Shown piece after piece: positions 14,652 to 55,778 of a DNA stretch of 64,000 bases. Source of the stretch: an uncultured Calditrichaceae bacterium. Lineage in GTDB: Bacteria > Calditrichota > Calditrichia > RBG-13-44-9. A program made the position numbers and the translations under genes. Position 1 is the stretch's first letter; each line of letters starts with the position of its first letter. The stretch is taken from NCBI GenBank assembly GCA_964452045.1, contig CAYVKM010000005.1, positions 2,945 through 66,944 of the forward strand, read 5' to 3'. A model generated the notes under the pieces. The model made no database searches. It saw nothing but the letters and a program-made list of their open reading frames with translations, and was not told the origin of the DNA.

Positions 14652-14736
14652 GAGTGTTATTTCCCAATTTTTATGCGAGATTAGTGCAGGAACGGAAATT
14701 ATTTTTATTTAACTTCGCCCAATGAAAGTAAACTAA

Positions 14737-16011: not shown

Positions 16012-16029
16012 ATTACGGATTCCATCTTT

Positions 16030-23948: not shown

Positions 23949-24781
23949 TTGGGCGAGAATGGTGTCTCGCTCCTGCCTCCATAGTATTGATAAAAAGCCC
24001 GCATCCCAAACACCAAGCCTGCTGTCCCCAGAATCAAGATGATTGGGGATACGTGGTCTCCCCACAAATAAATGCTGGCAAATTTCTCCTGATTTGTATT
24101 ATAAAACAGCAGTGCAGCTGCATTGTTGGTTGCATGGCCGATCACTGAGGGAACAATGCTATTGGCCCGCCAGGCCAGAATTCCAAGTATGATGCCCAGT
24201 AAAAATATTTGAATAGCCCAGTAGATCATGCCATGGATGATGGTCCAGGCCAGGCTGGCATAGATCACCGCCTTGGTAACATCATAATGTTTTTCCAGGG
24301 ATCGTTGCAGAAAGCCACGAATAATAGATTCTTCCACAAATGCCGCTGCAACCACCGCTCCGAAAACTAATATGATAAAATCTACCGGGGTATGGATGGC
24401 CATAGCCTGTGAAATTTCTCCGAGAAAATCCGGAGCCGGGATAAACATATTCATCAGGCGGTCCAGCTCATCGCCAATGACGCTGATGCCCAGACCAATT
24501 GCAAAACCCCAGGGAATAAGAAAAGCTGGGATCGGGTTCCAGCGGAAAACCTCCCGGTAGGATAAACCACGGCTTTTAACATAAACCAGCGGGACTATAA
24601 TCAATCCAACCTCTCCAAATGTGATGAGCATCTTTAACGCTAGGGAATGCTGATTGATTTTCTCCGGATCAGAGACCAAAATGAATAACAGGGATTGGGT
24701 AATCAGAACGATAAGAAAAAAGCTGGCAATGATAATCAGAAAGGCTTCCAGGGGGCGCGGAAATTTTGTTTTATCCTCCAT
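23945..24781 (-). CDS. CPBP family intramembrane glutamic protease (CAAX protease-like)
   Basis: Polytopic membrane protein with motifs FVEESIIRGF and HATNNAAALL. Confidence 0.8.
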   Translation of the reverse strand: MEDKTKFPRPLEAFLIIIASFFLIVLITQSLLFILVSDPEKINQHSLALKMLITFGEVGLIIVPLVYVKSRGLSYREVFRWNPIPAFLIPWGFAIGLGISVIGDELDRLMNMFIPAPDFLGEISQAMAIHTPVDFIILVFGAVVAAAFVEESIIRGFLQRSLEKHYDVTKAVIYASLAWTIIHGMIYWAIQIFLLGIILGILAWRANSIVPSVIGHATNNAAALLFYNTNQEKFASIYLWGDHVSPIILILGTAGLVFGMRAFYQYYGGRSETPFSPN

Positions 24782-25653: not shown

Positions 25654-27420
25654 CTATGAGGTTTTAAAGAGCGGGGCTTTGCGATACCAGCGCATTAATT
25701 CGTCCCGATATATGACCCCGGTAAGGGTACGCTTGGCTCTTTTGTCAACTACCGGGAGCATTTCGGCATCAGTCAGATCGAACAGGCGCAGCACATCTGC
25801 CAGTGATTGGTCAGGATGAACGGAGATAAAATCCTCCTGCATAATATCTTTGGCAATCAGCAGGGGATAGATATGTTCTTCGAACATATAACTGCGGATA
25901 TTATTGAGGGAAATGAGACCAACCAGCTTTTTTTTCTGATTCAGGACCGGAAAGGTGGCATGATCGCTTCTTCGGAGTAAATTTAAAATCTTGATGAAGG
26001 GCATGTCTTCGGATACCTTATCGTATTTGGTTTTAATATGCTGCTCTATGGGTACACTTTGCAACAGGGTCAGGTTGCGCCCTTTGAAAATATATTCGCC
26101 GCTCAGGGCAATCTTCATGGTGTACATATTACTGCGCATCACCCAGCGGGAAGTTATGGTAGCAATAATGGTTCCCAGCATTAATGGTAAAATAATCTGA
26201 TAATTACTGGTTACTTCGAAAATGAGCATAAGGGCTGTGATCGTGGCGTGGGTTGTCCCAGCAATCATCACTCCCATTCCCACCAGGGCATAAGCGCCGG
26301 GTGAAGCGGTAATTTCGGGAAAAAGGACGTTCATTACCGTGCCGAAAAATGCGCCAAAGGCAGCACCAATAAAAAGGGTCGGGATAAATAATCCGCCGGA
26401 TCCTCCGCTTCCCAGGGAAAGAGAAGTTGCGATCATTTTAAAAATCATCAACAGAAACAATGTGCCAACCGCAGTGTGGGCGGCCAGCGCACTGTGGATG
26501 GCGCTGTCATCGAATCCGTAGATGTCCGGAAAGCGGAGTGCCACAATTCCCATCAATAATCCACCCAGTGCCGGTTTAAGATATTCTGGAAAATTTTTAG
26601 CACGATTAAATAAATCCTCGGTGCCATAAAGAATTTTGGTGAACAAGACTGCCAGCAATCCACCGACAATTCCCATGAGTAAGTAGAGTGGATATTCATA
26701 GAAGCTCTCCAGATAGTAAAGCGGGACACTTAAAACCGGACTGCTTCTGATAAGATAGTGCGAAATAGTAGTGGAAATAACAGTGGCGAAAATAATGGGA
26801 GTAAAAGCTGAAACGCTAAAATCCGCCAGAAGTACTTCCAGGGCAAATAATACCCCGGTAACCGGTGCGTTAAATACTGCCGCCAGACCTGCGGCTGCCC
26901 CGGCTCCAACCAGCAGTTTTAATCGTTCCGATGAAACGTTGAAAAGTTGGCCGACGGTCGAACCAATGGCTGCCCCCACCTGCACAATAGGCCCTTCTTT
27001 TCCGGCAGAGCCACCGGTCCCTATGGTAGTACCGGCAGTGAGTGAGGTAATCAGGGTAACCCGGGGACGGATAAATCCACTGCGATTCGCAATGGATTCG
27101 ATAACTGAAGGTACTCCGTGACCACGGGATTCCCGTGAAAGCAGGTGGATAATTAAACCGACAATTAAGCCACCGATCGCCGGAAAAAGTACCAGCATTA
27201 CTTTGGATATCCAGGTGATGTTGCTCAGGTGGTAAATTTTATCAAAGAAAATATAACGGACAAAATTAATCAGCAGATTTAAAGCATATGCGCCCAGACC
27301 GGCAAAAGTCCCGATAAGAGCAGCCAGGAACAGCATATAAAAATCCTGAGGCAGGTCAATTCGCTGAATAAGTTTAAGCAGAGTAATTTGGGCATGTTTT
27401 CTCAGATGTTTAAATCTCAA
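25654..27420 (-). CDS. ClC family voltage-gated chloride channel / H+-Cl- antiporter with C-terminal CBS pair
   Basis: Selectivity-filter-like motifs GHGVPS, GKEGPIVQ and GGLFIPTL. C-terminal ~140 aa have a CBS-pair pattern. Confidence 0.88.
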   Translation of the reverse strand: MRFKHLRKHAQITLLKLIQRIDLPQDFYMLFLAALIGTFAGLGAYALNLLINFVRYIFFDKIYHLSNITWISKVMLVLFPAIGGLIVGLIIHLLSRESRGHGVPSVIESIANRSGFIRPRVTLITSLTAGTTIGTGGSAGKEGPIVQVGAAIGSTVGQLFNVSSERLKLLVGAGAAAGLAAVFNAPVTGVLFALEVLLADFSVSAFTPIIFATVISTTISHYLIRSSPVLSVPLYYLESFYEYPLYLLMGIVGGLLAVLFTKILYGTEDLFNRAKNFPEYLKPALGGLLMGIVALRFPDIYGFDDSAIHSALAAHTAVGTLFLLMIFKMIATSLSLGSGGSGGLFIPTLFIGAAFGAFFGTVMNVLFPEITASPGAYALVGMGVMIAGTTHATITALMLIFEVTSNYQIILPLMLGTIIATITSRWVMRSNMYTMKIALSGEYIFKGRNLTLLQSVPIEQHIKTKYDKVSEDMPFIKILNLLRRSDHATFPVLNQKKKLVGLISLNNIRSYMFEEHIYPLLIAKDIMQEDFISVHPDQSLADVLRLFDLTDAEMLPVVDKRAKRTLTGVIYRDELMRWYRKAPLFKTS

Positions 27421-27745: not shown

Positions 27746-28081
27746 TTAGAAAGTTTTACTGATACCAAAAATTTGATCCACATTCAGGATAAACACCAGC
27801 CCATTACCCGGTTCCTCCAGGGAGCCAACCACCTGCTCGATAGCTTTCACGGCCGGCTGCACCAGATTTTCCGGAATGAGGGTGAGTATGGTTTTATTAG
27901 CTGGCCGGCTGCCCTTCATCAGGTTTTTAAAACCGGCAAAGATAGGAATATCCTGGGCCAGAATAGAACCCATCCCGACACTGTCCAAAATGGTAGCGCC
28001 TTTAATATTTAATTCCAGGAATGCCTCGAGGATCTCTTCCAGGTGTTCCTCCTTATTAAGGATGAATACCAGCAACTTCAT
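27746..28081 (-). CDS. PII-like (GlnB-fold) signalling protein
   Basis: 111 aa. MKLLVFILNKEEHLEEILEAFLELNIKGATILDSVGMG ... GNGLVFILNVDQIFGI aligns by eye with the beta-alpha-beta / T-loop / beta-alpha-beta layout of GlnB. The T-loop region is not GlnB-like. Confidence 0.5.
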   Translation of the reverse strand: MKLLVFILNKEEHLEEILEAFLELNIKGATILDSVGMGSILAQDIPIFAGFKNLMKGSRPANKTILTLIPENLVQPAVKAIEQVVGSLEEPGNGLVFILNVDQIFGISKTF

Positions 28082-28554
28082 GAGGCGATCTCGAAATATT
28101 TTTCCTCTTCTTCCTTCAGAATCCGGTAAGCTTCATCCGGGGTTGTAGCAACTTTAAGCTTATCCCGCAGTGATTCTTTGGCGATGATCCGGGAAATCCG
28201 GCTGAGCAGGCGAATATGTGTTCCCGGATTTTCTTCTGGTCCGATGAGAAGGAAAATTATTTTTACCGGCCGGTTATCTATCGATTGAAAGTCAACGCCC
28301 TCCGGATGAATTCCCAGGGCAATGGCAAATTCACTGCATTCCTTTTTCTTGCAGTGAGGAATTGCTACCTCCCGACCCACGCCGGTGGTCATTATTTTTT
28401 CCCGTTCCATTATTGCGGAAAACACCGAATTGTGATCGGTAAAAAATCGTGATGAGGTAAGCACTTGAATCATTTCTTTGATTACCTCTTCTTTGTTTTG
28501 ACCTTTTAAAGGAATTTGGATATAACCCGGCTTGAGGACATCGACCAATTTCAT
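28078..28554 (-). CDS. ptsN: PTS EIIA type-2 domain protein (EIIA-Ntr / PtsN-like)
   Basis: EREKIMTTGVGREVAIPHCK carries the phosphorylatable His motif of EIIA-2. 158 aa. 4-nt overlap with the PII-like gene. Confidence 0.75.
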   Translation of the reverse strand: MKLVDVLKPGYIQIPLKGQNKEEVIKEMIQVLTSSRFFTDHNSVFSAIMEREKIMTTGVGREVAIPHCKKKECSEFAIALGIHPEGVDFQSIDNRPVKIIFLLIGPEENPGTHIRLLSRISRIIAKESLRDKLKVATTPDEAYRILKEEEEKYFEIAS

Positions 28555-34771: not shown

Positions 34772-34787
34772 TGGCACCAAATTTGAA
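34772..34787 (+). promoter_or_regulatory. Sigma-54-like -24/-12 promoter element upstream of the pilin-like gene
   Basis: TGGCAC-CAAAT-TTGAA versus consensus TGGCAC-N5-TTGCW. The -24 element and the spacing are perfect, but the -12 GC is GA. About 150 nt upstream of ATG 34937. It is the only such match I saw in an intergenic region. Confidence 0.4.
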
Positions 34788-34936
34788 GTTATTGGAATCG
34801 CATGAGCAAATTAAGAAGACAAAGTGGAATCAACAAGGAGGTTAAACATGAAAAAGCCCTTTTTTTAAATAAACACCTTAAGCAACCCAATTTTGAACCA
34901 ATTAACCAAATCAATTAATTTTAAGGAGGATTTACA

Positions 34937-35386
34937 ATGGGTCAGCAGCAATTATTACTCATCGTTTTAGGTATCATCATCGTCGGTATTGCCATAGCAG
35001 TTGGTGTGAATATGTTCCAGAGCAGTGCCGTGGACACCAATCGCCAGTCCATGATCAGTGACCTGGCCAACCTGGCAGCCAAAGCACAACGATTCTATCG
35101 GACACCCACCGAGCTGGGTGGCGGTGCTCAGAATTTCCAGAATTTCGCCCTTGGCCGTCTGGATACAGCCAATGCCAATGGCAGCTATCGTTTGTCAACT
35201 TCAGCTGATTTGTCTGCAAATGCAGTTCCTGCCCCAACAACAGCTAATACCTCGATTGCTACTTCAGTGACCGATACGATCTACATTTTGGGCTGGGGTA
35301 AGGAAATGGGCGACATTGGTACTGTCCCGGTCAAAGCACAATGTTCGGTTTCTCCGACCGGAATTCATACTACAATTGTAAACTAA
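34937..35386 (+). CDS. Pilin-like major subunit candidate (non-canonical N-terminus)
   Basis: Strong RBS AAGGAGG 7 nt upstream. 149 aa starting MGQQQLLLIVLGIIIVGIAIAVGVNMFQ, followed by an amphipathic helix (SMISDLANLAAKAQRFY). First gene of the T4P-like locus and followed by its own hairpin terminator, as highly expressed pilin genes often are. No GFTLIE motif. Confidence 0.55.
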   Translation: MGQQQLLLIVLGIIIVGIAIAVGVNMFQSSAVDTNRQSMISDLANLAAKAQRFYRTPTELGGGAQNFQNFALGRLDTANANGSYRLSTSADLSANAVPAPTTANTSIATSVTDTIYILGWGKEMGDIGTVPVKAQCSVSPTGIHTTIVN

Positions 35387-35403
35387 GAAAGCTCTAAAAA
35401 AGG

Positions 35404-35431
35404 GGGCGGGTTTCGAACCCGCCCTGTTTTT
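35404..35431 (+). terminator. Intrinsic terminator/attenuator directly after the pilin-like gene
   Basis: Perfect 9-bp stem GGGCGGGTT / AACCCGCCC with a 3-nt loop, followed by TGTTTTTA. Confidence 0.75.
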
Positions 35432-35452
35432 ATCAGGAAGAGGATGATATAA

Positions 35453-36793
35453 ATGGCAGACTTCAGATTTACCGGGATCTCAAATTCAGGAAAATCAGTG
35501 CAGGGAGTGATAACCGCCGATACTATGTCGGAAGCCAAGAAAAAAATCAAAAAAATGGCTGCCCAGCACAAAGTGAAAATTAACCGCATTCAGAAGCGGA
35601 AGATTTATATGTATAAGATCCAGAAAAACGGTGAAAAGCCCACAGCTGGTGAACAAAAGGCTTTTACCAAAGAAGAGGTCCGTCAGGCGCTGAATAAATT
35701 GGGTTATAATATTGTCAAAATACAACCCAAGATAAATTTTTTAAATATGAGGCCACCGGCAGCCGATATTGTCACCTTTGTTAGGTTAAGCGCCGATTTG
35801 TTAAGGGAAAAACTGCCATTCAATGAAGTTTTACAGTTGCTGGGGAACGATTTAAGCAACCCGACGCTGAGAGATTCGATAAAAGAAATTAACAACGACC
35901 TCCGCCAGGGGAAAGACAGCGAAGAAGCCTTTATGAAGCAGGAGAGAGTGTTTGGGAAATTTACCGCCCGGATGCTGGGGCTGGCCTCCAAGAGTGGTAA
36001 TATGGCGGATATCTATGAGAGTACTGCCAAGTTTCTGGAACGGAATGCGGAATTCAAAAAAAATCTGCGTCAGGCGCTGATCATGCCTTTATTCACCTTA
36101 GTAATTTTATTTGGTGCCTGTATCTTCTATGTGGCCTATATCTTTCCGGAAACAGCAAAATTGTTCCTGAAACTCGGTAGTGAACTCCCCCCCATGACTA
36201 TGGCCACTCTATCTCTGAGTGATTTTCTTATCGCAAATATGTCTTACTTCTTAATGGCAATGGCCTTATCAATTGGTGCACTGGCGTATGCCCTGAGAAC
36301 GGCCAAGGGAAAATTTGTTAAAGATCAGTATATTCTGAAACTGCCCATTATCGGACCAATTGTGCATAAAACGACCATTGAGATTTTTTGTCGGGTGTTC
36401 TACTCACTTTACAGTGGTTCAGGTGAAAACGTGGATGCCATAAAGTTGGCGGCAGAGGCATGCGGTAACCGCTATTTTGAAGACCGGATTAAAAATGTTT
36501 CAATTCCCCTGATGTTGAGAGAAGGACGGGGACTGGTGGATTCATTTAAGGAAGCAGATGTTTTTACGCCCACAGCGCTTTCCCGCTTTAATTCAGGTGC
36601 TGAAACCGGTACGGTGAAAAGCACAGCCATCCAGATAGCCAATTATTACGAAAAAGAAACCGTCTACAAACTTAAGAATGCAGTGGATCTGGTTCAGATT
36701 GTGGTAGCCATGATCATTATGGTCGTAATGACTGCTTTGACTCTGGTTTCTTCCGAAACAGCGCTGGTATCCCCCAAGTCGCCGATCGGTTAA
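35453..36793 (+). CDS. pilC: Type IV pilus / T2SS platform protein (PilC/GspF family)
   Basis: 446 aa with a duplicated T2SSF-like cytoplasmic domain plus TM pattern. Adjacent to the PilB-like ATPase. Confidence 0.8.
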   Translation: MADFRFTGISNSGKSVQGVITADTMSEAKKKIKKMAAQHKVKINRIQKRKIYMYKIQKNGEKPTAGEQKAFTKEEVRQALNKLGYNIVKIQPKINFLNMRPPAADIVTFVRLSADLLREKLPFNEVLQLLGNDLSNPTLRDSIKEINNDLRQGKDSEEAFMKQERVFGKFTARMLGLASKSGNMADIYESTAKFLERNAEFKKNLRQALIMPLFTLVILFGACIFYVAYIFPETAKLFLKLGSELPPMTMATLSLSDFLIANMSYFLMAMALSIGALAYALRTAKGKFVKDQYILKLPIIGPIVHKTTIEIFCRVFYSLYSGSGENVDAIKLAAEACGNRYFEDRIKNVSIPLMLREGRGLVDSFKEADVFTPTALSRFNSGAETGTVKSTAIQIANYYEKETVYKLKNAVDLVQIVVAMIIMVVMTALTLVSSETALVSPKSPIG

Positions 36794-36838
36794 ATATTTA
36801 AGATAAATATGGTAATTCTAATACAGTCAGGATTTTAG

Positions 36839-38626
36839 ATGAAAACGAATGTCGACATTACTGACAGGTTGGGTGTTACCCTTCTCAAGAAGGGTATTGT
36901 CAATTTTGAAACGCTTGAGAAAGCCATTAAAATAAAAGAAAATGGCGGCAAGGGTGAAGGGCGCACTTTAGCCCAGATCCTGGTGAAGGATTTTAATGTC
37001 GATCATGACAGCATTTTTCAGCAGGTAACCCAACTTTATGGTTTCCGCGAGGTGTTCCTGGAAGAAGAGAACATTAATGATAACCGCGTTGCCTTTATGC
37101 GTAAAATGCTGGATCCTCTTCCGGAACCGCTGCGAAAGTTAATGAAAGAAGAAAAAATCCTGGTTTATAAATATGATGAATACCGTCCTTATGTTTTAAT
37201 TATCCTGGCGGCGGACCCCACCAATAAAAATATTCCCCAGATTGCCAGAGCCATTGGTGCCAAAAGATACGAAGTCTGCTATGTAAAACAGCATAAACTG
37301 GACAACCTTTTGGAAAAAATATATCCGGAAGAGAACATCTATCTCAAAGAGATGGATGATATGGCTCTGGAAATTGAAGAGGTGGATAAGGAGCAGGAAT
37401 CTCTTGATGAGGAGGCCATTGAAGCCGAAATCAACAAAAGCTTGCTGGTTAACCTGGTGGAGGGTATGCTGGTTGAAGCAGTAAGGCGGGGTGCTAGTGA
37501 TATTCATATTATACCAAAAGGACCCAGGATATCAGAAATCCACATGCGGGTGGATGGTACGTTGCGTTTGTGGCATGTTCAGGATGGTGTACGACCGGAG
37601 TCGCTGGCAGCTGTAGTCAAGGACCGGACTAAGAATGTGGATCGTTTTGAACGGGAAAAATCCCAGGACGGCTTTATTCAGAGAAAGGTAAACAGTTATA
37701 ATATTCGTTATCGTGTATCAGTAATCCCGATCGTCGGTAAAGAATTTTCACAAAAACTGGAAAGTATTGTTATCCGTATTCTGGATGACCGTAAAGTAAT
37801 TACTGATTTAGATAAGCTTGGTTTTGGCGGGAATGCCAAGGACTTTTTCATTAAAGCAATCTCAAAACCCCAGGGAATGATTATTGTCACCGGGCCTACC
37901 GGAAGTGGTAAATCGACCACCCTGATTGCAGCACTGGCTTACATTATGCGCCCGGAGATTAATGTTCTTACGGTTGAAGATCCGGTGGAATATATTATTA
38001 ATGGAGCCCGGCAAATCAAGATAAGTCACAAGAACAATTTTGAATCTGCCTTGCGGGCAATTCTGCGTCACGACCCGGATGTAGTCATGGTCGGTGAGAT
38101 TCGTGATAAAGAAACCGCTGAAACCGGTATTAAACTGGCGAATACCGGTCACTTGACCTTTTCTACACTTCACACTAACGACGCACCAAGTGCCGTGTCC
38201 CGTCTGTATAAGATGGGGGTGGAAACATTCCTGATTGCTTATGCCATCAATATTATCATTGCCCAGAGGTTGGTTCGCAGACTATGTGAATACTGCAAGA
38301 AACCCATCCGGAGCCTGGATCCGATAGTCCCCAAAAGTCTGGGTTTTACCGATGAGGAGATTAAAAAGACAGTATTTTATGAAGCGGTTGGATGCAATAA
38401 ATGCCATAATGGATATAAGGGACGGGCGGCCATTCATGAAACTTTGTACTTTTCCAAAGAGATCCGGAAACTGATTTTTGAAACCGGGTCGGATATCAAC
38501 GAAGAAGCCATTAAAGAAGTAATGGCCAGAGAGGGTATGCATACCCTGCGGGCGGCGGGCAGGGAACGTATTAAACAAGGTTTGACTACCCTCACTGAAG
38601 TAGCCGCCATAACTACAGAAGATTAA
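36839..38626 (+). CDS. pilB: Type IV pilus assembly (extension) ATPase, PilB/GspE family
   Basis: Walker A GPTGSGKSTT, Asp box VEDPVEY, Walker B DPDVVMVGEIRD, His box TGHLTFSTLHTND. Tetracysteine motif CEYCKK...CNKCHNGYKGR. N-terminal GSPII_E_N-like domain. Confidence 0.9.
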   Translation: MKTNVDITDRLGVTLLKKGIVNFETLEKAIKIKENGGKGEGRTLAQILVKDFNVDHDSIFQQVTQLYGFREVFLEEENINDNRVAFMRKMLDPLPEPLRKLMKEEKILVYKYDEYRPYVLIILAADPTNKNIPQIARAIGAKRYEVCYVKQHKLDNLLEKIYPEENIYLKEMDDMALEIEEVDKEQESLDEEAIEAEINKSLLVNLVEGMLVEAVRRGASDIHIIPKGPRISEIHMRVDGTLRLWHVQDGVRPESLAAVVKDRTKNVDRFEREKSQDGFIQRKVNSYNIRYRVSVIPIVGKEFSQKLESIVIRILDDRKVITDLDKLGFGGNAKDFFIKAISKPQGMIIVTGPTGSGKSTTLIAALAYIMRPEINVLTVEDPVEYIINGARQIKISHKNNFESALRAILRHDPDVVMVGEIRDKETAETGIKLANTGHLTFSTLHTNDAPSAVSRLYKMGVETFLIAYAINIIIAQRLVRRLCEYCKKPIRSLDPIVPKSLGFTDEEIKKTVFYEAVGCNKCHNGYKGRAAIHETLYFSKEIRKLIFETGSDINEEAIKEVMAREGMHTLRAAGRERIKQGLTTLTEVAAITTED

Positions 38627-38644
38627 TGTATCAGGGAGGATGTA

Positions 38645-39184
38645 ATGAACACCGGTCAAATGATGTTAACAATTGGCGCCCTGGCTTTACTCAGCTTTGC
38701 CATCCTTAATCTGAATTCAAGTCTTAATGAGAACGATCTTGGACTTGCCCAAAACAGATATCGGCTGGAAGCTCTTTCCCTTATAACATCATATATGGAA
38801 CAGGCTACTATGTATTTTTTTGACGAATGTACATCCGATACCAGTAGTTTAAAACATGTCTCTGATTTTACCCTCGCCGGAAATCTTGGCGCTGAAGCTA
38901 ATGATTCCTCTGATTTTGATGATTTTGATGATTTTAATAATTACACCAAGATTGATACCGGATTGAGTGGAGTGATTTATAAAGTTATGTTCGATGTAGA
39001 TTATGTAACATTAGTTGGAGATTCTGTTAAACATTCCACTACTAGAAGTTGGCACAAACGGATGACTATTAGAGTAACTGATAATTATGATGATCCTCCT
39101 CTTTTGTATAAAAATGTGAGTGGTGACAAAGTCAAAGATACCCTGAAAATCAGTTTTGTCAACAGTTATTGGTTTTATAATTAA
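38645..39184 (+). CDS. Minor pilin/pseudopilin-like protein (non-canonical N-terminus)
   Basis: RBS GGGAGG. Starts MNTGQMMLTIGALALLSFAILNL. 179 aa. Located between pilB and pilT with two similar genes. Contains an acidic DFDDFDDFNNY segment. Confidence 0.45.
   Translation: MNTGQMMLTIGALALLSFAILNLNSSLNENDLGLAQNRYRLEALSLITSYMEQATMYFFDECTSDTSSLKHVSDFTLAGNLGAEANDSSDFDDFDDFNNYTKIDTGLSGVIYKVMFDVDYVTLVGDSVKHSTTRSWHKRMTIRVTDNYDDPPLLYKNVSGDKVKDTLKISFVNSYWFYN
38912..38938 (+). repeat. In-frame 9-bp tandem repeat (3 units) inside the minor pilin-like gene
   Basis: GATTTTGAT GATTTTGAT GATTTTAAT, encoding DFD-DFD-DFN. Confidence 0.9.
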
Positions 39185-39204
39185 AAATAACCAGAAAGCT
39201 TAAT

Positions 39205-39900
39205 ATGGCTACCTTAATAGATATTATCGGTGGAATTTTTATCGGGGGATTTTTGCTGCTTATTGCTCTGTCGGCCACCGATACGGCAACAACCGAGTTT
39301 TTTAATTATAATTCCGACGCCATTATGCAACAAAATCTGGCAAGAACTTCTGAGATCATCCAGTATGATCTCAGAAAAATGGGGTTTGGAATCCCGGAGG
39401 CATTTCAGAGCACAATCCTTAATGTAGCAACAAGCAATCGTTTGAAATTTCTGGCTCATTTAAACAGCGATCCGGATGCCTCAATGAATATTGCTGCCGT
39501 CACAACCTTTGATAATATTGTAGATACTATAGAATATGTGGCTTTGCCCTTTGACTCCGTGACTTATTATGATACTACTGTAACTACTTATCAGGTTCAA
39601 AGGACCTTAAAAATATCCCCCAATTACAATCATACTATGACTGTTGGGGTAATAGGAAATCAACAGGTTTTTCGTTATCTGGATCAGATAGGAAATGAAA
39701 CCGCTTTTATCCCGGCTACCCGGATGGTTGAAGTAACCTTAACGGCTTTTAATCCTAGGATATTCCTCAGTCGCGATTGGGTGGACAGTAAATTAACCGA
39801 TACCACGAATGTTGCATTGCGTCAAAAAGAATTGCGGCGGTTATTGAGAGCATCTTACTGGCGTCAAACTCGCTTGATTTCAAGAAATTTAAGGCGATAA
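39205..39900 (+). CDS. Minor pilin/pseudopilin-like protein (leaderless TLID N-terminus)
   Basis: Starts M-ATLIDIIGGIFIGGFLLLIAL. This resembles the mature FTLIE N-terminus of type IV pilins but has no leader and no Gly(-1). 231 aa. Confidence 0.5.
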   Translation: MATLIDIIGGIFIGGFLLLIALSATDTATTEFFNYNSDAIMQQNLARTSEIIQYDLRKMGFGIPEAFQSTILNVATSNRLKFLAHLNSDPDASMNIAAVTTFDNIVDTIEYVALPFDSVTYYDTTVTTYQVQRTLKISPNYNHTMTVGVIGNQQVFRYLDQIGNETAFIPATRMVEVTLTAFNPRIFLSRDWVDSKLTDTTNVALRQKELRRLLRASYWRQTRLISRNLRR

Positions 39901-39914
39901 CAAGGAGGTATATC

Positions 39915-41159
39915 ATGGTAGGTAAAGGTGCTTTATTAATTGTATTTGGATTTATAATGGCTTTTTCGATGTATCAGTTAAAGATGAGTCATAACGTTCT
40001 TGCCACATCCGATAATTTTGTTAATAACTATATGGAAACACTTCTTCATGAAACAGCCTTAAGTGCCATGAATTTGGCGATTAACAAAGTCTGGGATCAG
40101 GATGTCAAGAATGATACCTTTATGATAAGAGCCAATCATTGCTCATCCAGAGTAGAAATCCGTCAACCAGGTTCGGATACCGTTCGGGTAAAAGTGAAGA
40201 CCTGGGGACGGGGTTACGATATGGAAGAGCAGTTATTTGTAGAAAAGTCAGATTCGATTACGGCTTATTTTGCTTCCGATATTCAACTATCAAAATTTTT
40301 CTGGTTCACAGAAAATGAAGGTAATGTCTACTGGATTAGCGGAGATACTATCTGGGGACCCATGCACACCAATACAGTGGTTAAAACCTGGGGTTCGCCG
40401 GTTTTCTACGGGAAAGTGACTGCTAAAGCAGGGATAACACCAAATCCCTTGTCTAAGAAAAATGAGGCAGAATTTAATGGGGGCTGGGAAATTGGGGTAG
40501 AGAATGAAATCCCTACGGATATGTCTAAAATTTTTAACGCTGCTGTTGCCGGAAATGGCGGTGCTGCACCAAATACAAAATGTATGTATGATACACCAAC
40601 AAGTTTTGAATTTTTAGCCAATGGGGATGTCATCAGAACGGTGGGAGCTAATCCACCGGACACGGTGAGTCTGGTAACTATTGCCCCAACCGGAGCAATT
40701 TATTCCACCGACGAAATCAGGGTAAAGGGCACATTTAATGGTGATGCAACAATTTATTCAAAAACAAATATTTACATCGACGATGATTTGGTTTATGCGG
40801 ATAACCCGATGATCAATCCAAATTCAGATGATCTTTTAGGGTTGGTGGCCCAAAATGATGTACTCATTACCGATAATGTTGCCAATAACAGCGATTGTAA
40901 TTTACAGGCCAGCATCTTTGCCATAAATGGAAATTACGGAGCGGAAAATTATGCCTCGCGACCTGTTTCCGGGGTGCTGCGTTTTGCGGGAAGTATCGCC
41001 CAGAAGCATAGGGGACCGGTTGGTACGTTTTCTTATGGCGCGGGGCTAAAATCCGGATTCTCCAAGCGTTATTATTATGACCTAAGACTACAAAACATGG
41101 CACCAAAGAATTTTCCATCTATACAAGGCTCTTTATACTTAGTTGCCTGGTGGGAATAG
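39915..41159 (+). CDS. Large pilin-like / tip-associated subunit candidate
   Basis: RBS AAGGAGG. Starts MVGKGALLIVFGFIMAFSMYQL, followed by a ~390-aa beta-rich domain. Its position in the locus is analogous to PilX/GspK-type large minor pilins. Confidence 0.4.
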   Translation: MVGKGALLIVFGFIMAFSMYQLKMSHNVLATSDNFVNNYMETLLHETALSAMNLAINKVWDQDVKNDTFMIRANHCSSRVEIRQPGSDTVRVKVKTWGRGYDMEEQLFVEKSDSITAYFASDIQLSKFFWFTENEGNVYWISGDTIWGPMHTNTVVKTWGSPVFYGKVTAKAGITPNPLSKKNEAEFNGGWEIGVENEIPTDMSKIFNAAVAGNGGAAPNTKCMYDTPTSFEFLANGDVIRTVGANPPDTVSLVTIAPTGAIYSTDEIRVKGTFNGDATIYSKTNIYIDDDLVYADNPMINPNSDDLLGLVAQNDVLITDNVANNSDCNLQASIFAINGNYGAENYASRPVSGVLRFAGSIAQKHRGPVGTFSYGAGLKSGFSKRYYYDLRLQNMAPKNFPSIQGSLYLVAWWE

Positions 41160-41185
41160 GTGTTCACTGAGAAAGGATTTATTTG

Positions 41186-42538
41186 ATGTCGACAAACTGG
41201 CAATTTGAAGCAGAAGCGAAAAAAGCGCTGGATATAGAAAAGAAGGAAATAAAGGAGGCACAACCGGAAACTCTGGAGAGAAAAAAGACGCCGAATGCTG
41301 AAATTCCCAGAATTGTTGAAAACGGGAAAAAGCTACTGGAGCACCTGAAGAAGCAGGTTCCTTCAGCACTGTTCAGCGTTGACAAGGAACAGTTTATCGG
41401 TCATACTTTACTTCCCAAAGTTAGTGACCAGCATAAGTTAATTCTGCGGAATCTGATTAATACATTTCTGGAGGAGATGAGACGATTGGGAGCATCAGAT
41501 ATTGATCTGGGGGGTATGGGGAGCCAGAAAAAGGTCTGGTTTCGAATCCATGGAGATAAAAAGCCAATAGAAATATTTGGTAACTACGAGATAACGGAAT
41601 TTGATATCCTTATTCAGAGCATCTTACTGGCATCACAACTTGACGATTTATACGAACGGCGAAATGTTGACTTTTCCTATACTTTTTCCAGCAGCGAAAG
41701 ACAGTTATATCGAAACCGGGCCAATGTTGCTTTCGATTTGAATGCCCTTTCCTTAAATATGCGTGCCATTGAGACCCGCGCCCGGCGATTTGACCAGTAC
41801 GGATTTCACCCACATGTCGCTAAAAATCTTCACCTGAAATATACCAAAGAAGGACTCATCCTGGTGACCGGTATTACTGGCTCTGGAAAAAGTACCACAC
41901 TGGATGCGATTGTAGAATTGAATAATCAGACTGTTCCGGCACATGTTATTATTATTGCATCACCGGTCGAGTTTGTTCATACCCCCAAGAGATGTATAAT
42001 TCGACACCGGGAAGTTGGCCGGGATACTACTTCCTTTAAGCAGGGAACTATTGAGGCTCTGCGTCAGGATCCGGATATTATCATCATCGGTGAGATGCGA
42101 GATCCGGATACCATTATGTCTGCTCTGGAGGTGGCAGATAGTGGTCATAAAGTATTTTCTACCCTGCATACTTCCTCGGCGGTAGAGAGTATCGACCGTA
42201 TTATTGCGGAGGTACCCACCACAGAGCAGGATCGTATTCGAAACCGGTTGGCTGATGTTTTGCGGGTGGTGATGTCCCAGAAACTTGTTCAGACCATTGC
42301 CGGAGACCGGGTGATGGCCAAGGAGGTAATGGTGATGACACCCTCCATCCGGGCAGCGATTAAAAACAACAATGTGAATGAAATTTATCAGATGATCAGT
42401 GAAGGACATCAATGGGGGATGAATACCATTGAGCAGGATTTGGCGAAGTTGTATTTTGAAAGAAGAATAACTAAAGAAACCGCAATTAATTACGCTAATA
42501 ATAAGAGAAGATTGCAGCAGTTACTAAAAATGGCATAA
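41186..42538 (+). CDS. pilT: PilT/PilU family retraction-type ATPase with ~100-aa N-terminal extension
   Basis: Walker A GITGSGKSTTL, ASPVEFVH, Walker B DPDIIIIGEMRD, His box SGHKVFSTLHTSS. ATG 41186 is preferred over the adjacent TTG 41183. Confidence 0.85.
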   Translation: MSTNWQFEAEAKKALDIEKKEIKEAQPETLERKKTPNAEIPRIVENGKKLLEHLKKQVPSALFSVDKEQFIGHTLLPKVSDQHKLILRNLINTFLEEMRRLGASDIDLGGMGSQKKVWFRIHGDKKPIEIFGNYEITEFDILIQSILLASQLDDLYERRNVDFSYTFSSSERQLYRNRANVAFDLNALSLNMRAIETRARRFDQYGFHPHVAKNLHLKYTKEGLILVTGITGSGKSTTLDAIVELNNQTVPAHVIIIASPVEFVHTPKRCIIRHREVGRDTTSFKQGTIEALRQDPDIIIIGEMRDPDTIMSALEVADSGHKVFSTLHTSSAVESIDRIIAEVPTTEQDRIRNRLADVLRVVMSQKLVQTIAGDRVMAKEVMVMTPSIRAAIKNNNVNEIYQMISEGHQWGMNTIEQDLAKLYFERRITKETAINYANNKRRLQQLLKMA

Positions 42539-42554: not shown

Positions 42555-44147
42555 ATGGCTAAATACAAAGAATTTACCGGGAAATTAGCAGTTGGGTTAT
42601 TTGTGGAGGGACACTATCTGCACGTTGCATGTTTGTCCAAAAAAGACAATACGGTACAATTAGTGGACGGGCAAGTTCTTAAAATGTCCAAAGCCCTGGA
42701 AACAGTACGGGTTCAACAGGAAATATTTTCGGACTCTGCCGACGCCCCGGAAATAATTACCCCGCAAACGGACGATGAGAGCATTACTTTCGAGGAAGCA
42801 CCGGAGAAGGAATTAAATCTGAGTGGCATCGATGCGGAAAATTATGACAATATGGAAGTGCTTCAACGGGTATTATATCAATACCCTTCCAATAAATTTC
42901 GGATGGGTATCTCCCTGGCCGAACCCCAAATTTATTATACTTATTTTGCTACAGACTGGGGCTTAAGCGGAGAAAAATTGAAGAAACGGGTTATTGAGGA
43001 AGTTTCCCGGGAACGTAAAGATTTTGAGATGACCAAACCGGATGCGGTCTATATCAAAAAATTACGTGACGGTCGCTTAATGGCTATTGTGCGGGAAAGC
43101 CAGGTAAACGTTATTAATTCTTTGCAATATTTGCAGACCGAAAACCGCAAGGTGCTCCCCAAAATATCTTTTGTGGAAAGTGCGGAAACATCTTTGGTAA
43201 ATCTGATTAATGCCAATTATTATTTTGAAGATGAGGACTTTACTGTCATTGTTTACATGGGCAATGAGTACAGCCGTTTAATATTCCTGCAGGGTCATGA
43301 GATATTCAATATTTCCTACATAATTGGGGCGGGCCTGGATTCGGAGAATATTACTCATACCATCTACAGCCGTATTTTACTGGAACAGGATAATCTAAAC
43401 CTGCCCAGAGTTCAGAATATTATCCTGGCCGGCGAAGCGCACCAGGTGAGCCTGCGAGAATTTTTAAAGGAGAAGTTATCTGACGATATCAAAATTGATT
43501 ACCTCACTTTACCGAATCTGGAAATATATGATGAAGAAATAGAAGTTTCCAAGTACGCCATTGCCATTGGTGCTGCCTGGCGTACCCAGAACGATAAAGA
43601 GAAATTTCTGTATGATGTGGATCTTTTACCGGATAGTTTCCGGGAAAGTCAGAAGAAATTTAAGCTGGGTCTAATTGGCTGGTTATTGCTTTTTACCCTT
43701 CCGGCAATCGCCTATTTCACCACTATAAAAATCAGTGAGCAGCGGGAAGTTCTGAAAGAATTAATTGCTCAGCAGCAATATCATCAGGAAGAGTTGGATT
43801 ATCTCAAAGGAATAGAGGCAAAACTTAATGAGAGGCGGACAGTTCTGGCCAATTATGAAAAGGCATTTGGCGTCCTGGATGAAATGTCTGCCGGCATTGA
43901 CAAGTGGAATAAGTTCCTCCACAAGTTGTCCATTAACCAGGATAAAATTGGTCGAATTTGGATTACAGAAATCATTCCCACTGCCGATAATGAGGTGGTG
44001 TTAAAGGGATATGCGGTTTATCGGGATCGAATTCCCAGACTGTCGCAGGTCATGGGAGCAGGGGCATTAAAAATTGTTCAGGTACAGGCGATTCGGGAAC
44101 GGACAGTTTATTACTTTGAAATGAACGCCACTTTGCCAACGGATTAA
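42555..44147 (+). CDS. pilM: PilM-like actin-fold protein fused to a PilN-like TM/coiled-coil module
   Basis: N-terminal 340 aa have PilM/FtsA-like blocks (LAVGLFVEGHYLHVA, VIVYMGNEYSRLIF, IIGAGLDS, ILAGEA, AIAIGAAW). These are followed by a TM helix (LGLIGWLLLFTLPAIAYFTTI), a coiled coil and a C-terminal alpha/beta region. Confidence 0.65.
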   Translation: MAKYKEFTGKLAVGLFVEGHYLHVACLSKKDNTVQLVDGQVLKMSKALETVRVQQEIFSDSADAPEIITPQTDDESITFEEAPEKELNLSGIDAENYDNMEVLQRVLYQYPSNKFRMGISLAEPQIYYTYFATDWGLSGEKLKKRVIEEVSRERKDFEMTKPDAVYIKKLRDGRLMAIVRESQVNVINSLQYLQTENRKVLPKISFVESAETSLVNLINANYYFEDEDFTVIVYMGNEYSRLIFLQGHEIFNISYIIGAGLDSENITHTIYSRILLEQDNLNLPRVQNIILAGEAHQVSLREFLKEKLSDDIKIDYLTLPNLEIYDEEIEVSKYAIAIGAAWRTQNDKEKFLYDVDLLPDSFRESQKKFKLGLIGWLLLFTLPAIAYFTTIKISEQREVLKELIAQQQYHQEELDYLKGIEAKLNERRTVLANYEKAFGVLDEMSAGIDKWNKFLHKLSINQDKIGRIWITEIIPTADNEVVLKGYAVYRDRIPRLSQVMGAGALKIVQVQAIRERTVYYFEMNATLPTD

Positions 44148-44165: not shown

Positions 44166-45056
44166 TTGTCATATAAACTTAGAAATATCATTGTTCTTAT
44201 CTCACTGGTCGTCCTGCTGGGAGGGGTAAGTGGATATTTTACACTTTACCATTATCCCAAAAAGATTAAAATCGTCCAAAAGAAAATTGACGGTATAAAG
44301 AAGCAAATTTCAAATTTGGCCGGTGTTGAGGAAGAATACAAAAACATTGAGAAGATTATTAAAGAAAAAGAGCAGCGGTTAGCAAATCTCGACAGGAAAA
44401 TTGTGCCAGCGGTGACGCCTGCAAACAGTTATCAGTATCTGAACACTATTCTGAATTACAGCGGTGTTCTGGATTTTGATATGCTTTATCAGGGTGTGAA
44501 AAGTGCCGGTCGATATAGCTATAATGTCTATAATATTAAGGGTGAAGGTCCGTACTATAAAATTTACAAGTTTATCACTTTTTTAGAAAAGGGTCCCCAG
44601 GTTTATAAGATCAATAAATTGACCATGAGAATGGTTGAGGATAAGGACAAAGAGACCAGTGCCTACCGGATAATTATTACTTTTGAAATGGAAATATGGG
44701 CATTGTTTGCCGATGTCCAGAATTTGCCTCCTATTAAACGTACCCTGGGAAATGTGTACGTAAAGAGAGCCTCAAATCCCTTCTATCCCTATATCTATAG
44801 AAACATCCCAGCTAATGTGGATGAACGTTTAGAGGTGGAAAGGGCGGAATTAAAGGCCATTTTACCGGACAAAATCATGGTGGCGGACGCGGAAGGCAAG
44901 ATCCACGAATTGCAGGAAGGTGATAAGGTTTATCTGGGATATCTGAAGAGAATAGATCATGAAAATAACAAAGCATACTTTGTTTTGAATAAAGGAGGCA
45001 TTGTAGAGACATTCGAACTTCATATCAGGTTCGGTGAGGAGACGACTGGTAAGTAA
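44166..45056 (+). CDS. PilO/GspM-like bitopic alignment-complex protein candidate
   Basis: TTG start after AAAGGAG. N-terminal TM (IIVLISLVVLLGGVSGYFTLY), a coiled coil, then a globular domain. Lies between the PilM/N-like gene and the secretin. Confidence 0.4.
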   Translation: MSYKLRNIIVLISLVVLLGGVSGYFTLYHYPKKIKIVQKKIDGIKKQISNLAGVEEEYKNIEKIIKEKEQRLANLDRKIVPAVTPANSYQYLNTILNYSGVLDFDMLYQGVKSAGRYSYNVYNIKGEGPYYKIYKFITFLEKGPQVYKINKLTMRMVEDKDKETSAYRIIITFEMEIWALFADVQNLPPIKRTLGNVYVKRASNPFYPYIYRNIPANVDERLEVERAELKAILPDKIMVADAEGKIHELQEGDKVYLGYLKRIDHENNKAYFVLNKGGIVETFELHIRFGEETTGK

Positions 45057-45087
45057 ACTGTTCATAAACCCGAAGAAAGAGTTGCCC

Positions 45088-46299
45088 ATGAAAGCACGTA
45101 TTATTCTGTTAATCATCTTAGTTACGCTGATCGGGACGACAGCGATATTTGGACAAGGAAGACGATTCCGACCCCTGCGGAATGCCTATACAGCGCCGGA
45201 AGAGATTGTGTCTCTCTCCAATACCATGACGTTTAGCCAGGCCTTAGCGCTCTTTAATGATTTGAGTAAAAAATTTCTGGGAAAAATTATTGTTGATCCG
45301 GAGGGACTCAATTTCCCGATTGGCGAGGACATTGAGAAAATGCACTGGCTGGATGCAATGGAACTTATCCTGAAGCTGCATAATCTATGGTACGAGGAGT
45401 ATGAGGATTACATCAAAATTATTCCAATGGGTGGTGAGCAGGGAAAAAAGATATCAGCGGCAGATCAAAAATTACTAAGTGAATTTGATAATCGTGAAGT
45501 AATTATTACAGCAGTCTTCTTCGAAACTGACATCTCTAAACTTCGTCAGGCCGGAATGAGCTGGGATCTTTTCCGGGGAAGGGATGCAAATGCCCGGGTG
45601 AATATGAGTGCCGCCGAAACACAAAGCGGTCTGTTCCAGATTGATGTGAATCCGAATTGGGATTTTGCAGATGTTCTGGCCACCTTTAAGGCGCTGGAAA
45701 GCGATAATATTGGTGAGGTTATTTCCAGTCCCCAGGTCACGGTGAAGTCAGGTGGTGAAGGACGAATCCAGGTGGGGAGCGACATTTCGGTTACCATTCA
45801 GGATTTCGCTGGAAATGCGATCACTCAATTCTTTTCAACCGGATCAATTATCCGGGTTAAACCGGTAATTGTGAGAAAGGACTCCATTGATTTTGTCATC
45901 CTCGATCTGGAAGTAGAACGAAGTAATACCGCAACCGGTGATGTGGGCCTGGAAATTCGCAAATCAAAAGCGGAAACAGATGTATTGCTCCTTGATGGAG
46001 AGGAAACCATTATCGGTGGTCTGTTCATCAATGAAGAGGGCAACTCCCGGGAAGGTATTCCCTTTCTGAAAGATCTGCCCTGGTGGTTTTTCGGATTGCG
46101 CTATGTCTTTGGATTCGAGTCAAAAACAGTTCGGAAAAAAGAACTGATCATATTGTTGAAAGCCGAGTTGTTACCCTCATTGGAACAACGATTCAGAAGC
46201 AAAATAACTGGCGCCCGTAAAACTGACCTGTTAATTGAGTACAATAATGCCTTTAAAAATAAGATGCGGTATTACGAACGCAGATTAAAAAACCGATAA
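45088..46299 (+). CDS. pilQ: Secretin (PilQ/GspD family), short form
   Basis: Signal peptide MKARIILLIILVTLIGTTAIFGQG from ATG 45088; the ORF track start at 45034 overlaps the previous gene. Secretin domain blocks: GEVISSPQVTVKSGGEGRIQVG, DGEETIIGGLF, GIPFLKDLPWWFFGLRYVFG, ELIILLKAELL. Confidence 0.85.
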   Translation: MKARIILLIILVTLIGTTAIFGQGRRFRPLRNAYTAPEEIVSLSNTMTFSQALALFNDLSKKFLGKIIVDPEGLNFPIGEDIEKMHWLDAMELILKLHNLWYEEYEDYIKIIPMGGEQGKKISAADQKLLSEFDNREVIITAVFFETDISKLRQAGMSWDLFRGRDANARVNMSAAETQSGLFQIDVNPNWDFADVLATFKALESDNIGEVISSPQVTVKSGGEGRIQVGSDISVTIQDFAGNAITQFFSTGSIIRVKPVIVRKDSIDFVILDLEVERSNTATGDVGLEIRKSKAETDVLLLDGEETIIGGLFINEEGNSREGIPFLKDLPWWFFGLRYVFGFESKTVRKKELIILLKAELLPSLEQRFRSKITGARKTDLLIEYNNAFKNKMRYYERRLKNR

Positions 46300-51821: not shown

Positions 51822-52199
51822 CTACTTTTTTTCAGCCTTTTTGGAATAGACCTTGACAAACTCCTGTTTGTACATTTGCTGGGTAAAGAGGACAGTCCGC
51901 TCTTCCGCCTGCTGAATATTTTCGCCGTATTTTTCCTGTAACCGGTCGCAGATAGCCAGGATATTCAATTTACCATCAAAAAGTTGCCAGATAAATGTTC
52001 CGATTTCGTCCAGATGAATTCTCTGGGCGGGAGATTTGGGTTTCGGTAAAAATTTCCGGGTAAACCAATTTTCCGGGTGTGGAACAATTAATACGACATG
52101 AGATTTTTCATCCATTTCATATTCTACCTGACGAATGGGATAGAGCGATAGCCAGTCAGAAATTATTTGCTCCCGATCCGGATTGTTTTTCTGCTTCAT
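51822..52199 (-). CDS. PqqD family (RRE-like) protein with N-terminal extension
   Basis: The C-terminal 70 aa (IHLDEIGTFIWQLFDGKLNILAICDRLQEKYGENIQQAEERTVLFTQQMYKQEFV) fit the PqqD pattern. The start codon overlaps the upstream stop (TGATG). Confidence 0.6.
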   Translation of the reverse strand: MKQKNNPDREQIISDWLSLYPIRQVEYEMDEKSHVVLIVPHPENWFTRKFLPKPKSPAQRIHLDEIGTFIWQLFDGKLNILAICDRLQEKYGENIQQAEERTVLFTQQMYKQEFVKVYSKKAEKK

Positions 52200-54851: not shown

Positions 54852-54926
54852 TCTGTATCTATTTCCATTTTCTTAATTATTTGATTGAATAAGATTAACT
54901 ATAACCCTTAAGATTTCTAATGCCAA

Positions 54927-55769: not shown

Positions 55770-55778
55770 CTCGATGTC

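Follow-up and report, generated by a model that had tools for sequence, protein, structure and literature searches.

The 64,000 nucleotides analysed here (the window; positions 2,945 to 66,944 of contig CAYVKM010000005.1, assembly GCA_964452045.1, from an uncultured Calditrichaceae bacterium) carry a gene cluster for a pilus of the type IVa kind. Its four subunit candidates, proteins A to D, begin almost directly with the hydrophobic N-terminal helix. We suggest that the locus encodes a retractile machine similar to type IVa pili which is built from an unrecognised class of pilins and needs no dedicated prepilin peptidase, and we give this reading a probability of about 0.5. It is highly probable that A to D truly belong to the type IV pilus subunits and form a new class among them. 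They depart from prepilins in three defining sequence features, that is, the leader, Glu5 and the match to prepilin hidden Markov models (HMMs), and agree with them in structure and genetic context. We therefore read them as a pilin class with a vestigial class III signal and not as ordinary type IV prepilins.

The pilus locus

The pilus genes form a tightly packed cluster on the plus strand in the order A, PilC, PilB, B, C, D, PilT, PilM-like, PilO-like and secretin. For comparison one genome per species was scanned for loci with a gene for A. The scan yielded more than 341 loci; 80 of them were kept with 10-kb flanks, and the locus counts below refer to these. The features of the cluster are as follows.

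34772..34786, plus strand: sigma-54-type promoter-like element TGGCACcaaatTTGA, 150 nt 5′ of the ATG of pilin A
34923..34929, plus strand: Shine-Dalgarno sequence AAGGAGG, 7 nt 5′ of the ATG of pilin A, overlapped by the in-frame TAA at 34922-34924
34937..35386, plus strand: protein A, major pilin candidate, 149 aa, N-terminus MGQQQLLLIVLGIIIVGIAIAVG
35403..35432, plus strand: intrinsic terminator, hairpin and T-run, directly 3′ of the pilin A gene
35453..36793, plus strand: PilC/GspF-type inner-membrane platform protein (PF00482 T2SSF, E = 3.5e-30), syntenic in 67/80 loci
36839..38626, plus strand: PilB/GspE-type assembly ATPase (PF00437 T2SSE, E = 1.4e-104)
38645..39184, plus strand: protein B, minor pilin candidate by context and N-terminal architecture, 179 aa, MNTG-QMMLTIGAL
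39205..39900, plus strand: protein C, GspJ/PilW-like minor pilin candidate, 231 aa, M-ATLID-IIGG
39915..41159, plus strand: protein D, ComZ-like modular minor pilin, 414 aa, MVGKG-ALLIVFGF
41183..42538, plus strand: PilT-like retraction ATPase, TTG start (PF00437, E = 2.6e-38)
42555..44147, plus strand: PilM-like protein with a C-terminal membrane segment (PilM/PilN-like fusion), weak match to the NCBIfam model Amuc_1101 PilM-like (E = 7e-6), syntenic in 52 loci
44166..45056, plus strand: PilO-like bitopic coiled-coil protein, assigned by position and topology (N-terminal transmembrane segment and coiled coil), syntenic in 49 loci
45034..46299, plus strand: PilQ-type secretin (PF00263 Secretin, E = 5e-27)

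The cluster thus co-encodes a PilB-type and a PilT-type ATPase, a PilC platform and a PilQ secretin (PF00437 twice, PF00482 and PF00263). The orthologues of the PilT-like protein are 50-69% identical and are encoded 3′ of PilB in most loci. The PilO-like protein has no significant match among the Pfam families, and no PilP was recognised in the cluster.

Start sites and N-terminal signal

The class III signal of type IV prepilins consists of a leader of 6-26 residues which ends in Gly and usually contains basic residues, followed by 21 hydrophobic residues interrupted by Glu5 (PMC4471445). Gly(-1) is the critical residue for the prepilin peptidase; Glu5 hardly ever varies in bacteria and is frequently missing in archaea, and Glu5 mutants fail to homopolymerise (PMC4471445).

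A first reading of the window, made from the sequence only, had described A to D as filament-subunit candidates which lack this signal, and the description holds. The four open reading frames (ORFs) lie at the coordinates listed above and start with MGQQQLLLIVLGIIIVGIAIAV (A), MNTGQMMLTIGALALLSFAIL (B), MATLIDIIGGIFIGGFLLLIAL (C) and MVGKGALLIVFGFIMAFSMY (D). In-frame TAA codons precede A, B and C at 34922-34924, 38624-38626 and 39178-39180, and no ATG, GTG or TTG is found between these stops and the respective ATG. For D the nearest in-frame upstream stop is at 39789-39791, and start codons are likewise absent in between. Shine-Dalgarno sequences are located 6-7 nt 5′ of A (AAGGAGG), B (AGGGAGG) and D (AAGGAGG); protein C has no obvious one. 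Only leaders of 2 (A), 4 (B), 0-1 (C) and 3-5 (D) residues are therefore possible, as longer ones are excluded by the upstream stops. In an alignment of orthologues, the check which the earlier reader had asked for, both the start codons and the G-Q junction are conserved, and no hidden canonical motif is seen. A longer leader hidden by a different start codon or by an assembly error is ruled out by the upstream stops, the spacing of the Shine-Dalgarno sequences and the orthologues.

Neither Lys nor Arg occurs before residue 36 in A, B and C, and only D has a basic residue in its leader. The first acidic residue is not found before position 33 in A, 29 in B and 33 in D. Protein C alone keeps an acidic residue at the equivalent of position +5 (Asp6), and here Gly(-1) is absent. 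The presumed major subunit A has Leu at +5 when counted from Gln3, and indeed Leu stands in the place of Glu5 in any register (L6, L7 or L8). PF07963 and TIGR02532 do not match A to D at E up to 1, nor do they match the family members scanned (40, 23 and 22). The canonical signal is thus missing in all four proteins: the leader is too short, Glu5 is lacking in A, B and D, and both models remain unmatched. What A, B and D retain is the hydrophobic helix with a Gly just ahead of it, while the hydrophilic leader and the acidic residue are lost. This Gly is conserved as G2 in A (134/134), as G4 in most orthologues of B and invariantly as G3 in D; it is missing in the protein C of the window and in 75% of the C family. 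Since the N-terminal pattern is conserved in orthologues from several phyla, it is far beyond chance.

Conservation across phyla

The 80 loci span Calditrichota, KSB1, Kryptoniota, Ignavibacteriota (including Melioribacter roseus and Ignavibacterium), Cloacimonadota, Balneola and many metagenome-assembled genomes (MAGs) filed as 'Bacteroidota'. Homologues of protein A fall into 1359 clusters at 90% identity, the named ones being from Calditrichia/Calditrichaeota and KSB1 MAGs. Many of them are labelled 'Tfp pilus assembly protein PilE' or 'PulG' by the JGI pipeline and hypothetical at NCBI. The order A-PilC-PilB-(B-C-D)-PilT-PilM-PilO-PilQ is conserved in loci of Calditrichota, KSB1, Kryptoniota, Ignavibacteriota, Cloacimonadota and Balneola. 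The B-C-D block of some Ignavibacteria lies upstream on the other strand or beyond the 10-kb flanks. B, C and D move as a unit, which stays beside the pilin or PilB genes across phyla.

The N-terminus of A is conserved to an unusual degree. Exactly M-G begins 127 of the 135 A-family ORFs in the 80 loci; in the other eight the same dipeptide, or V(GTG)G, lies inside the ORF. G2 is found in 134/134, Q4 in 132/134 and Q5 in 133/134 sequences, and 1/134 has an acidic and 2/134 have a basic residue among the first 24. These 24 residues, MGQQQLLLIVLG[IV]IIVG[IV]AIAVG, are near-invariant even where the overall identity drops to 50%. The sequence-only reading had treated the subunits as an oddity of a single locus; instead, they represent the normal state of a large pilin family across phyla of the FCB group.

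Two or three A paralogues are present in 46/80 loci. Many of the extra copies (in loci L014, L025, L036, L040, L047, L049, L066 and others) are found no more than ~2 kb from the copy that adjoins PilC; the MGQQQ start is common to all, and their globular parts are divergent. This suggests that the paralogues are antigenic or functional variants of the major pilin. One Calditrichia MAG (locus L015, JANQRS010000065.1) has two A paralogues and two complete B-C-D sets, at 725-3305 and 13812-16493, one upstream near a second PilT/PilM/PilO/PilQ set and the other after PilB. Whole minor-pilin modules have therefore been duplicated. A homologue of protein C with 50% identity (P0299) is deposited under a 'Methanobacteriota archaeon' MAG; its cluster is bacterial and contains a secretin, which makes faulty binning the probable source of this label.

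Neither Pfam nor NCBIfam has a model for A, B or C. In the literature on the MGQQQL motif, on leaderless or PilD-independent pilins and on pili of Calditrichota and Ignavibacteria we found no description of this class, and nothing on these taxa is contained in the supplements to the survey of type IV filaments and to the paper on C. abyssi.

The subunit candidates

The AlphaFold2 model of protein A (40-sequence alignment, predicted local distance difference test score, pLDDT, of 82) consists of a helix of 53 residues (3-55), a loop and four strands. This is the arrangement of a pilin, as judged by the order of secondary structure only. The family profile of A, when compared with the PDB sequences, finds only pilin and pseudopilin helices (Geobacter PilA, E = 0.05; GspG, E = 0.35), and in 19/40 family members the region after the membrane helix gives weak, sub-threshold matches to the minor-pilin family ComP_DUS. 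Gly17 and Gly23 are invariant in the family. They recall the helix breakers Gly14 and Pro22 of type IVa pilins.

A sigma-54-type element, TGGCAY-N5-TTG[CA], stands upstream of 19/133 A-family genes, compared with ~0.005 expected per 400 nt, and is likely to function as a promoter. A gene for a sigma-54 activator of the response-regulator type is present on the other strand, 17 kb 3′ of the pilin gene (52199-53554, minus strand). In the strong terminator behind A (35403-35425) a stem of 10 bp, 7 of them GC pairs, is combined with a T tract; it folds with -23.1 kcal/mol (z = -3.5). A separate, attenuated transcript of this kind would be typical of a major pilin gene. The sigma-54-like promoter of its own, the strong Shine-Dalgarno sequence, the terminator and the tandem paralogues together suggest that A is the major subunit, and promoter and terminator are both in keeping with strong expression of a gene for such a subunit. 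We also considered pyroglutamate, which reportedly forms the N-terminus of a Methanococcus pilin, at a Gln exposed by cleavage between G and Q, whose cyclisation would neutralise the N-terminus. This idea is weakened by the finding that 17/134 sequences of A have T, S, N or K as residue 3, Q4 and Q5 being the invariant residues.

The orthologues of protein B keep M-x-x-G-Q, and B always travels with C and D. Its assignment as a candidate pilin is based on the N-terminal architecture and this strict linkage. An acidic motif, FDDFDDF, is found at residues 91-97 (window 38915-38935). In the family it reads F/I-D-D-F/I-D-D-Y/F-N and is the only invariant block besides Met1, possibly a loop for the binding of a metal (Ca2+).

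An exhaustive profile search with protein C found 430 representative clusters, and none of the best 150 has a long leader. Asp6 is invariant, standing five residues after Met1 or after an M-G prefix, and accordingly there are two forms of the N-terminus. The first, M-x3-h-D, comprises 185 unique N-termini and has S, A, G or T at position 2 in 86%, which permits removal of Met; here the initiator Met appears to occupy the position of Gly(-1). The second, M-G-x4-h-D, comprises 61 N-termini with F or Y after M-G in 54%. Two independent weak alignments of C, to Thermus PilA3/TTHA1219 (E = 1.4) and to E. coli GspJ (hhalign probability 6%), agree in placing Asp6 on Glu5, Met1 on Gly(-1) and Ala2 on Phe1; the PilA3 match was lost with a deeper profile of C. 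The C-terminus of the family (window 39859-39897) has a conserved basic stretch, W-R-Q-T-R-L-x-S-[RK]-N-L-[RK]-R, which is unusual for a pilin.

Protein D, whose orthologues keep M-(x)-G-K/R, is according to its AlphaFold2 model (pLDDT 87) a helix (2-62) followed by four long antiparallel strands (67-124) and a beta-solenoid (130-413). The only significant PDB match of this model (Foldseek) is Thermus thermophilus ComZ (6qvi_B, E = 1.3e-7, probability 1.0, 478 aligned columns), and like ComZ the modelled D is a pilin module fused to a large beta-solenoid. By this predicted structure D is a pilin. DUF4900 (PF16241) scores below threshold in D (23.2 bits, cut-off 29.4) and is precomputed for many of its homologues. 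The beta-solenoid possibly serves binding of DNA or of surfaces.

Comparison with known systems

With the type IVa pili of diderm bacteria (Pseudomonas, Neisseria, Myxococcus and Thermus) the locus shares the genes for PilB, PilC, PilT, the PilM-like and PilO-like proteins and the secretin, a major pilin of ~150 aa with an N-terminal helix of ~53 residues and a four-stranded sheet, larger minor pilins and a likely sigma-54 promoter. It differs in that there is no pilD in the locus, the leader has 0-4 instead of at least 6 residues, and A, B and C have no basic residue in it. Moreover, the major pilin has Leu for Glu5 and an N-terminal Gln triad and does not match PF07963 or TIGR02532.

The order B-C-D, that is, a small minor pilin, a PilW-like and a ComZ-like protein, parallels pilA2-pilA3-comZ of Thermus, where these proteins have canonical class III signals and depend on PilD. 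In the Thermus cluster pilA1-pilA2-pilA3-comZ-pilA4 (ComZ, 6qvi; PilA3/TTHA1219, 5g23) D has its counterpart in the architecture of ComZ, and C has the size of PilA3. However, D and ComZ are only ~11% identical, and the alignment of C with PilA3 is not significant.

Archaeal type IV pilins and archaellins (for example Methanococcus EpdE and Sulfolobus pilins) have short leaders whose last residue is commonly Gly or Ala, and Gln is found at +1 in some of them. Glu5 is often missing from archaeal pilins (PMC4471445). These systems, however, use an ATPase and platform of the FlaI/FlaJ type and PibD, FlaK or EppA peptidases and have neither secretin nor PilT, whereas the machine described here is of the bacterial PilB/PilT/PilQ type. 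Tad/Flp pili also have small pilins which depart from F-T-L-I-E. Flp pilins carry long leaders and a G|xxxxEY motif and depend on the TadV peptidase and the TadA/B/C machinery; none of this is present here. An archaeal-type or Tad-type filament is ruled out, as the ATPases and the platform match PilB/GspE, PilT and GspF and a secretin is present.

The Bacteroidetes 'T2SS' (type II secretion system), known from Cytophaga hutchinsonii (chu_3191-3202; PMC5553014), is likewise from the FCB group, derived from type IVa pili and equipped with a very divergent major (pseudo)pilin and with PilMNO-like parts missed by standard models. It has its own Peptidase_A24 (CHU_3197) and no PilT, and its subunits were recognised by the similarity of their N-termini to pseudopilins (PMC5553014). 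The gene content here differs (PilT is present, an A24 gene is absent from the cluster), and identity of the two systems is ruled out.

A model for assembly and its alternatives

We suggest that the pilus is assembled in the following way in a Calditrichia-like host of the FCB group. PilB would drive extension and PilT retraction, with PilC as platform, the PilM/N-like and PilO-like proteins for alignment and PilQ as secretin. A would be the major pilin, and B, C and D a minor set which probably primes or caps the filament. As to topology we infer that each subunit inserts in the inner membrane by its N-terminal hydrophobic helix and exposes its globular part to the periplasm; by homology of the machine, PilB and PilC would then pull the subunits out of the membrane and stack them so that the helices come to lie in the filament core, as is the case in other type IV pili. 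The leader would have been cut down to M-G in A, M-x-x-G in B, M alone in C and M-x-G in D. With the initiator Met at the place of Gly(-1), an N-terminus competent for assembly could arise when methionine aminopeptidase takes this Met off, or even when the Met stays in place. The N-terminus of A would then offer an uncharged Gln-Gln-Gln-Leu-Leu-Leu in place of F-T-L-I-E. As A has no Glu5, there is no salt bridge from Glu5 to the N-terminal amine, and neutral packing must replace it. One may speculate that the invariant Gln4-Gln5 form a ladder of hydrogen bonds. We extend the model only tentatively to Calditrichota, KSB1, Ignavibacteriota, Kryptoniota, Cloacimonadota and allied Bacteroidota as a whole, which would assemble retractile pili without any prepilin peptidase, from subunits synthesised in practically mature form, and with an uncharged Gln-rich tip in place of the Glu5 salt bridge. 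If true, the type IV filament superfamily would thereby gain its first member that is independent of a peptidase.

A prepilin peptidase gene was searched for in three ways. Pfam finds no Peptidase_A24 among the window ORFs of at least 130 aa, and a screen of the multi-pass membrane ORFs in the 80 loci for the G-x-G-D-x-K motif was negative. An A24 HMM derived from E. coli GspO, pO157 EtpN and three plasmid A24 peptidases, run with filters off, gave no hit in 1.35 Mb (best E = 1.2); this model is purely gammaproteobacterial, with no positive control from the FCB group, and the sequence covered was the window and the 80 loci, not whole genomes. The genome paper of Melioribacter roseus gives both pilA and pilD as "not found". 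Since an MGQQQ pilin adjoins PilC in the locus of an M. roseus MAG (L040), the pilA is now accounted for. An Rce1/CPBP-type intramembrane protease encoded at 23945-24781 (minus strand) was considered as an alternative leader peptidase and is unsupported, as it lies outside the conserved neighbourhood.

Several observations weigh against our model. A peptidase missing from the locus may still be encoded in the genome: genes for prepilin peptidases are often found at other sites, and the MSH pilus loci, for example, lack one and borrow one (PMC6668835). The Gly right before the hydrophobic tract is conserved in A (134/134 N-termini), in most B orthologues and, without exception, in D, and the residues in front of it in B and D are short and leader-like and vary in sequence and length. 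Removal of Met cannot explain B (M-N-T-G) or D (M-V-G-K). The second form of C, which one quarter of the family shows, looks like a minimal prepilin site, M-G|F-S-T-L-L-D, and the two forms of C place Asp at the same distance from the putative mature end. The same pilus and the same pilins might therefore depend on an unlinked A24 peptidase which cuts after the conserved Gly, that is, MG|QQQ, MNTG|Q, MVG|KG and MG|F/Y in the second form of C (F or Y in 54%). On this view the signals would be class III signals of the ordinary kind, their leaders being the shortest known, and nothing but the loss of Glu5 would set them apart. The only residue strictly required by the peptidase is Gly(-1), and leaders can be shortened experimentally in some systems (PMC4471445). 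We regard this explanation as a serious contender, if a somewhat doubtful one. No A24 gene is found in the window or within 10 kb of the 80 related clusters, and pilD was reported as not found in the complete M. roseus genome. The protein C of the window, most of its family and three B orthologues have no Gly, and leaders of 2-4 residues without a basic residue fall outside the bacterial range of 6-26 (PMC4471445). The invariance of G2 is not specific for cleavage, because all of the first 24 residues of A are near-invariant. Assembly with no dedicated peptidase explains the Gly-less form of C with its small residue at position 2, the reported lack of pilD and the missing linkage, and leaves the prefixes of B and D unexplained. 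On the whole the data fit a Gly-specific unlinked peptidase and assembly with no dedicated peptidase about equally, and we lean slightly to the latter. Of the earlier interpretation, the assignment as filament subunits (by context, the folds of A and D, the ComZ match and the register of C) and the non-canonical signal are thus supported, while assembly in unprocessed form or after processing by a different enzyme is not established.

The pilin nature of the subunits itself has also to be weighed. Against it stands that B and C have no significant family or structure match: B matches nothing in Pfam, NCBIfam or PDB, Pfam scans of the individual members of the B and C families find no pilin family, and the profiles of B, C and D find nothing significant among the PDB sequences. 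In a Foldseek search against PDB the model of A has no significant match, pilins appearing only at E = 1.5-3.8, and the claim of a pilin fold for A rests therefore on the order of secondary structure and on sequence evidence. Comparisons of B, C and D with A, and of A, C and B with E. coli GspG, GspJ and GspI by hhalign give probabilities of 0.6-14%, which are hints at the register only. B and C, and possibly A, could on these grounds be generic signal-anchored periplasmic proteins encoded in a pilus cluster. We consider this very improbable: the B-C-D unit keeps its place beside the pilin or PilB genes in different phyla, D has the structure of a pilin, C keeps an acidic residue at the equivalent of Glu5 in 430 clusters, and A has the size, the 53-residue helix, the Gly spacing and the sheet of a pilin and matches only pilins by sequence. 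The pilus machine would moreover be left without a pilin, as was reported for M. roseus. A to D could also build a short periplasmic filament, a pseudopilus for secretion or DNA uptake, whose odd N-termini reflect a function other than that of a fibre. The resemblance of D to the competence-associated pilin ComZ fits this idea, as does the name PulG given to an A homologue by JGI. Thermus ComZ, however, belongs to a true type IVa pilus. Bacteroidetes do use a system derived from type IVa pili for secretion (PMC6668835, PMC5553014), but the secretion cluster of Cytophaga differs, with its own Peptidase_A24 gene and without PilT (PMC5553014). The conserved cluster described here includes a PilT-type ATPase, and PilT has been identified only in type IVa pili (PMC4471445). 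As the anomaly of the signal peptide would be left unexplained anyway, we regard a pseudopilus as unlikely.

Implications

For the subunits of bacterial type IV filaments two features are treated as near-universal, namely Glu5 and a leader that ends in Gly and is cleaved off by a dedicated aspartic peptidase (PMC4471445). Both rules are broken by the large family described here, and the PilB/PilC/PilT/PilQ machine to which it belongs is otherwise orthodox. Pilin finders based on motifs or HMMs (PF07963, TIGR02532 and, by design, PilFind) overlook these proteins, and genomes of these phyla are therefore annotated as having pilus machines without pilins, M. roseus being the explicit example. The family is a natural experiment on the purpose of the leader, of PilD and of Glu5, and cultured carriers are available in M. 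roseus, I. album and C. abyssi. The ComZ-like subunit hints at DNA uptake or adhesion in poorly studied phyla of sediments and the subsurface.

Other features of the window

The remainder of the window is an ordinary diderm chromosome with genes for a Kdo transferase, SurA paralogues, PBP1, UvrA, Mfd and FeoB, and the G+C content is ~42% throughout. Three consecutive genes for peptidyl-prolyl isomerases of the SurA/PpiC type (429, 280 and 569 aa; 53562-57488, minus strand) lie directly 3′ of Mfd (57559-60861, minus strand). At 27746-28554 (minus strand) the gene for a P-II-like protein of 111 aa overlaps the end of a gene of the phosphotransferase system EIIA(Ntr) type (158 aa); the pair is found downstream of a gene for a CLC chloride channel with CBS domains (25654-27420). 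Three ORFs, 61076-61918 (minus strand), 62055-62636 (plus strand) and 6301-6768 (minus strand), have no Pfam match at E up to 0.1; one of them encodes a four-pass membrane protein of 280 aa. Finally, a single chain of 1403 aa (39-4250, plus strand) combines the FMN domain of glutamate synthase with GATase_6 and GXGXG domains in a non-standard order, the FMN domain being first.

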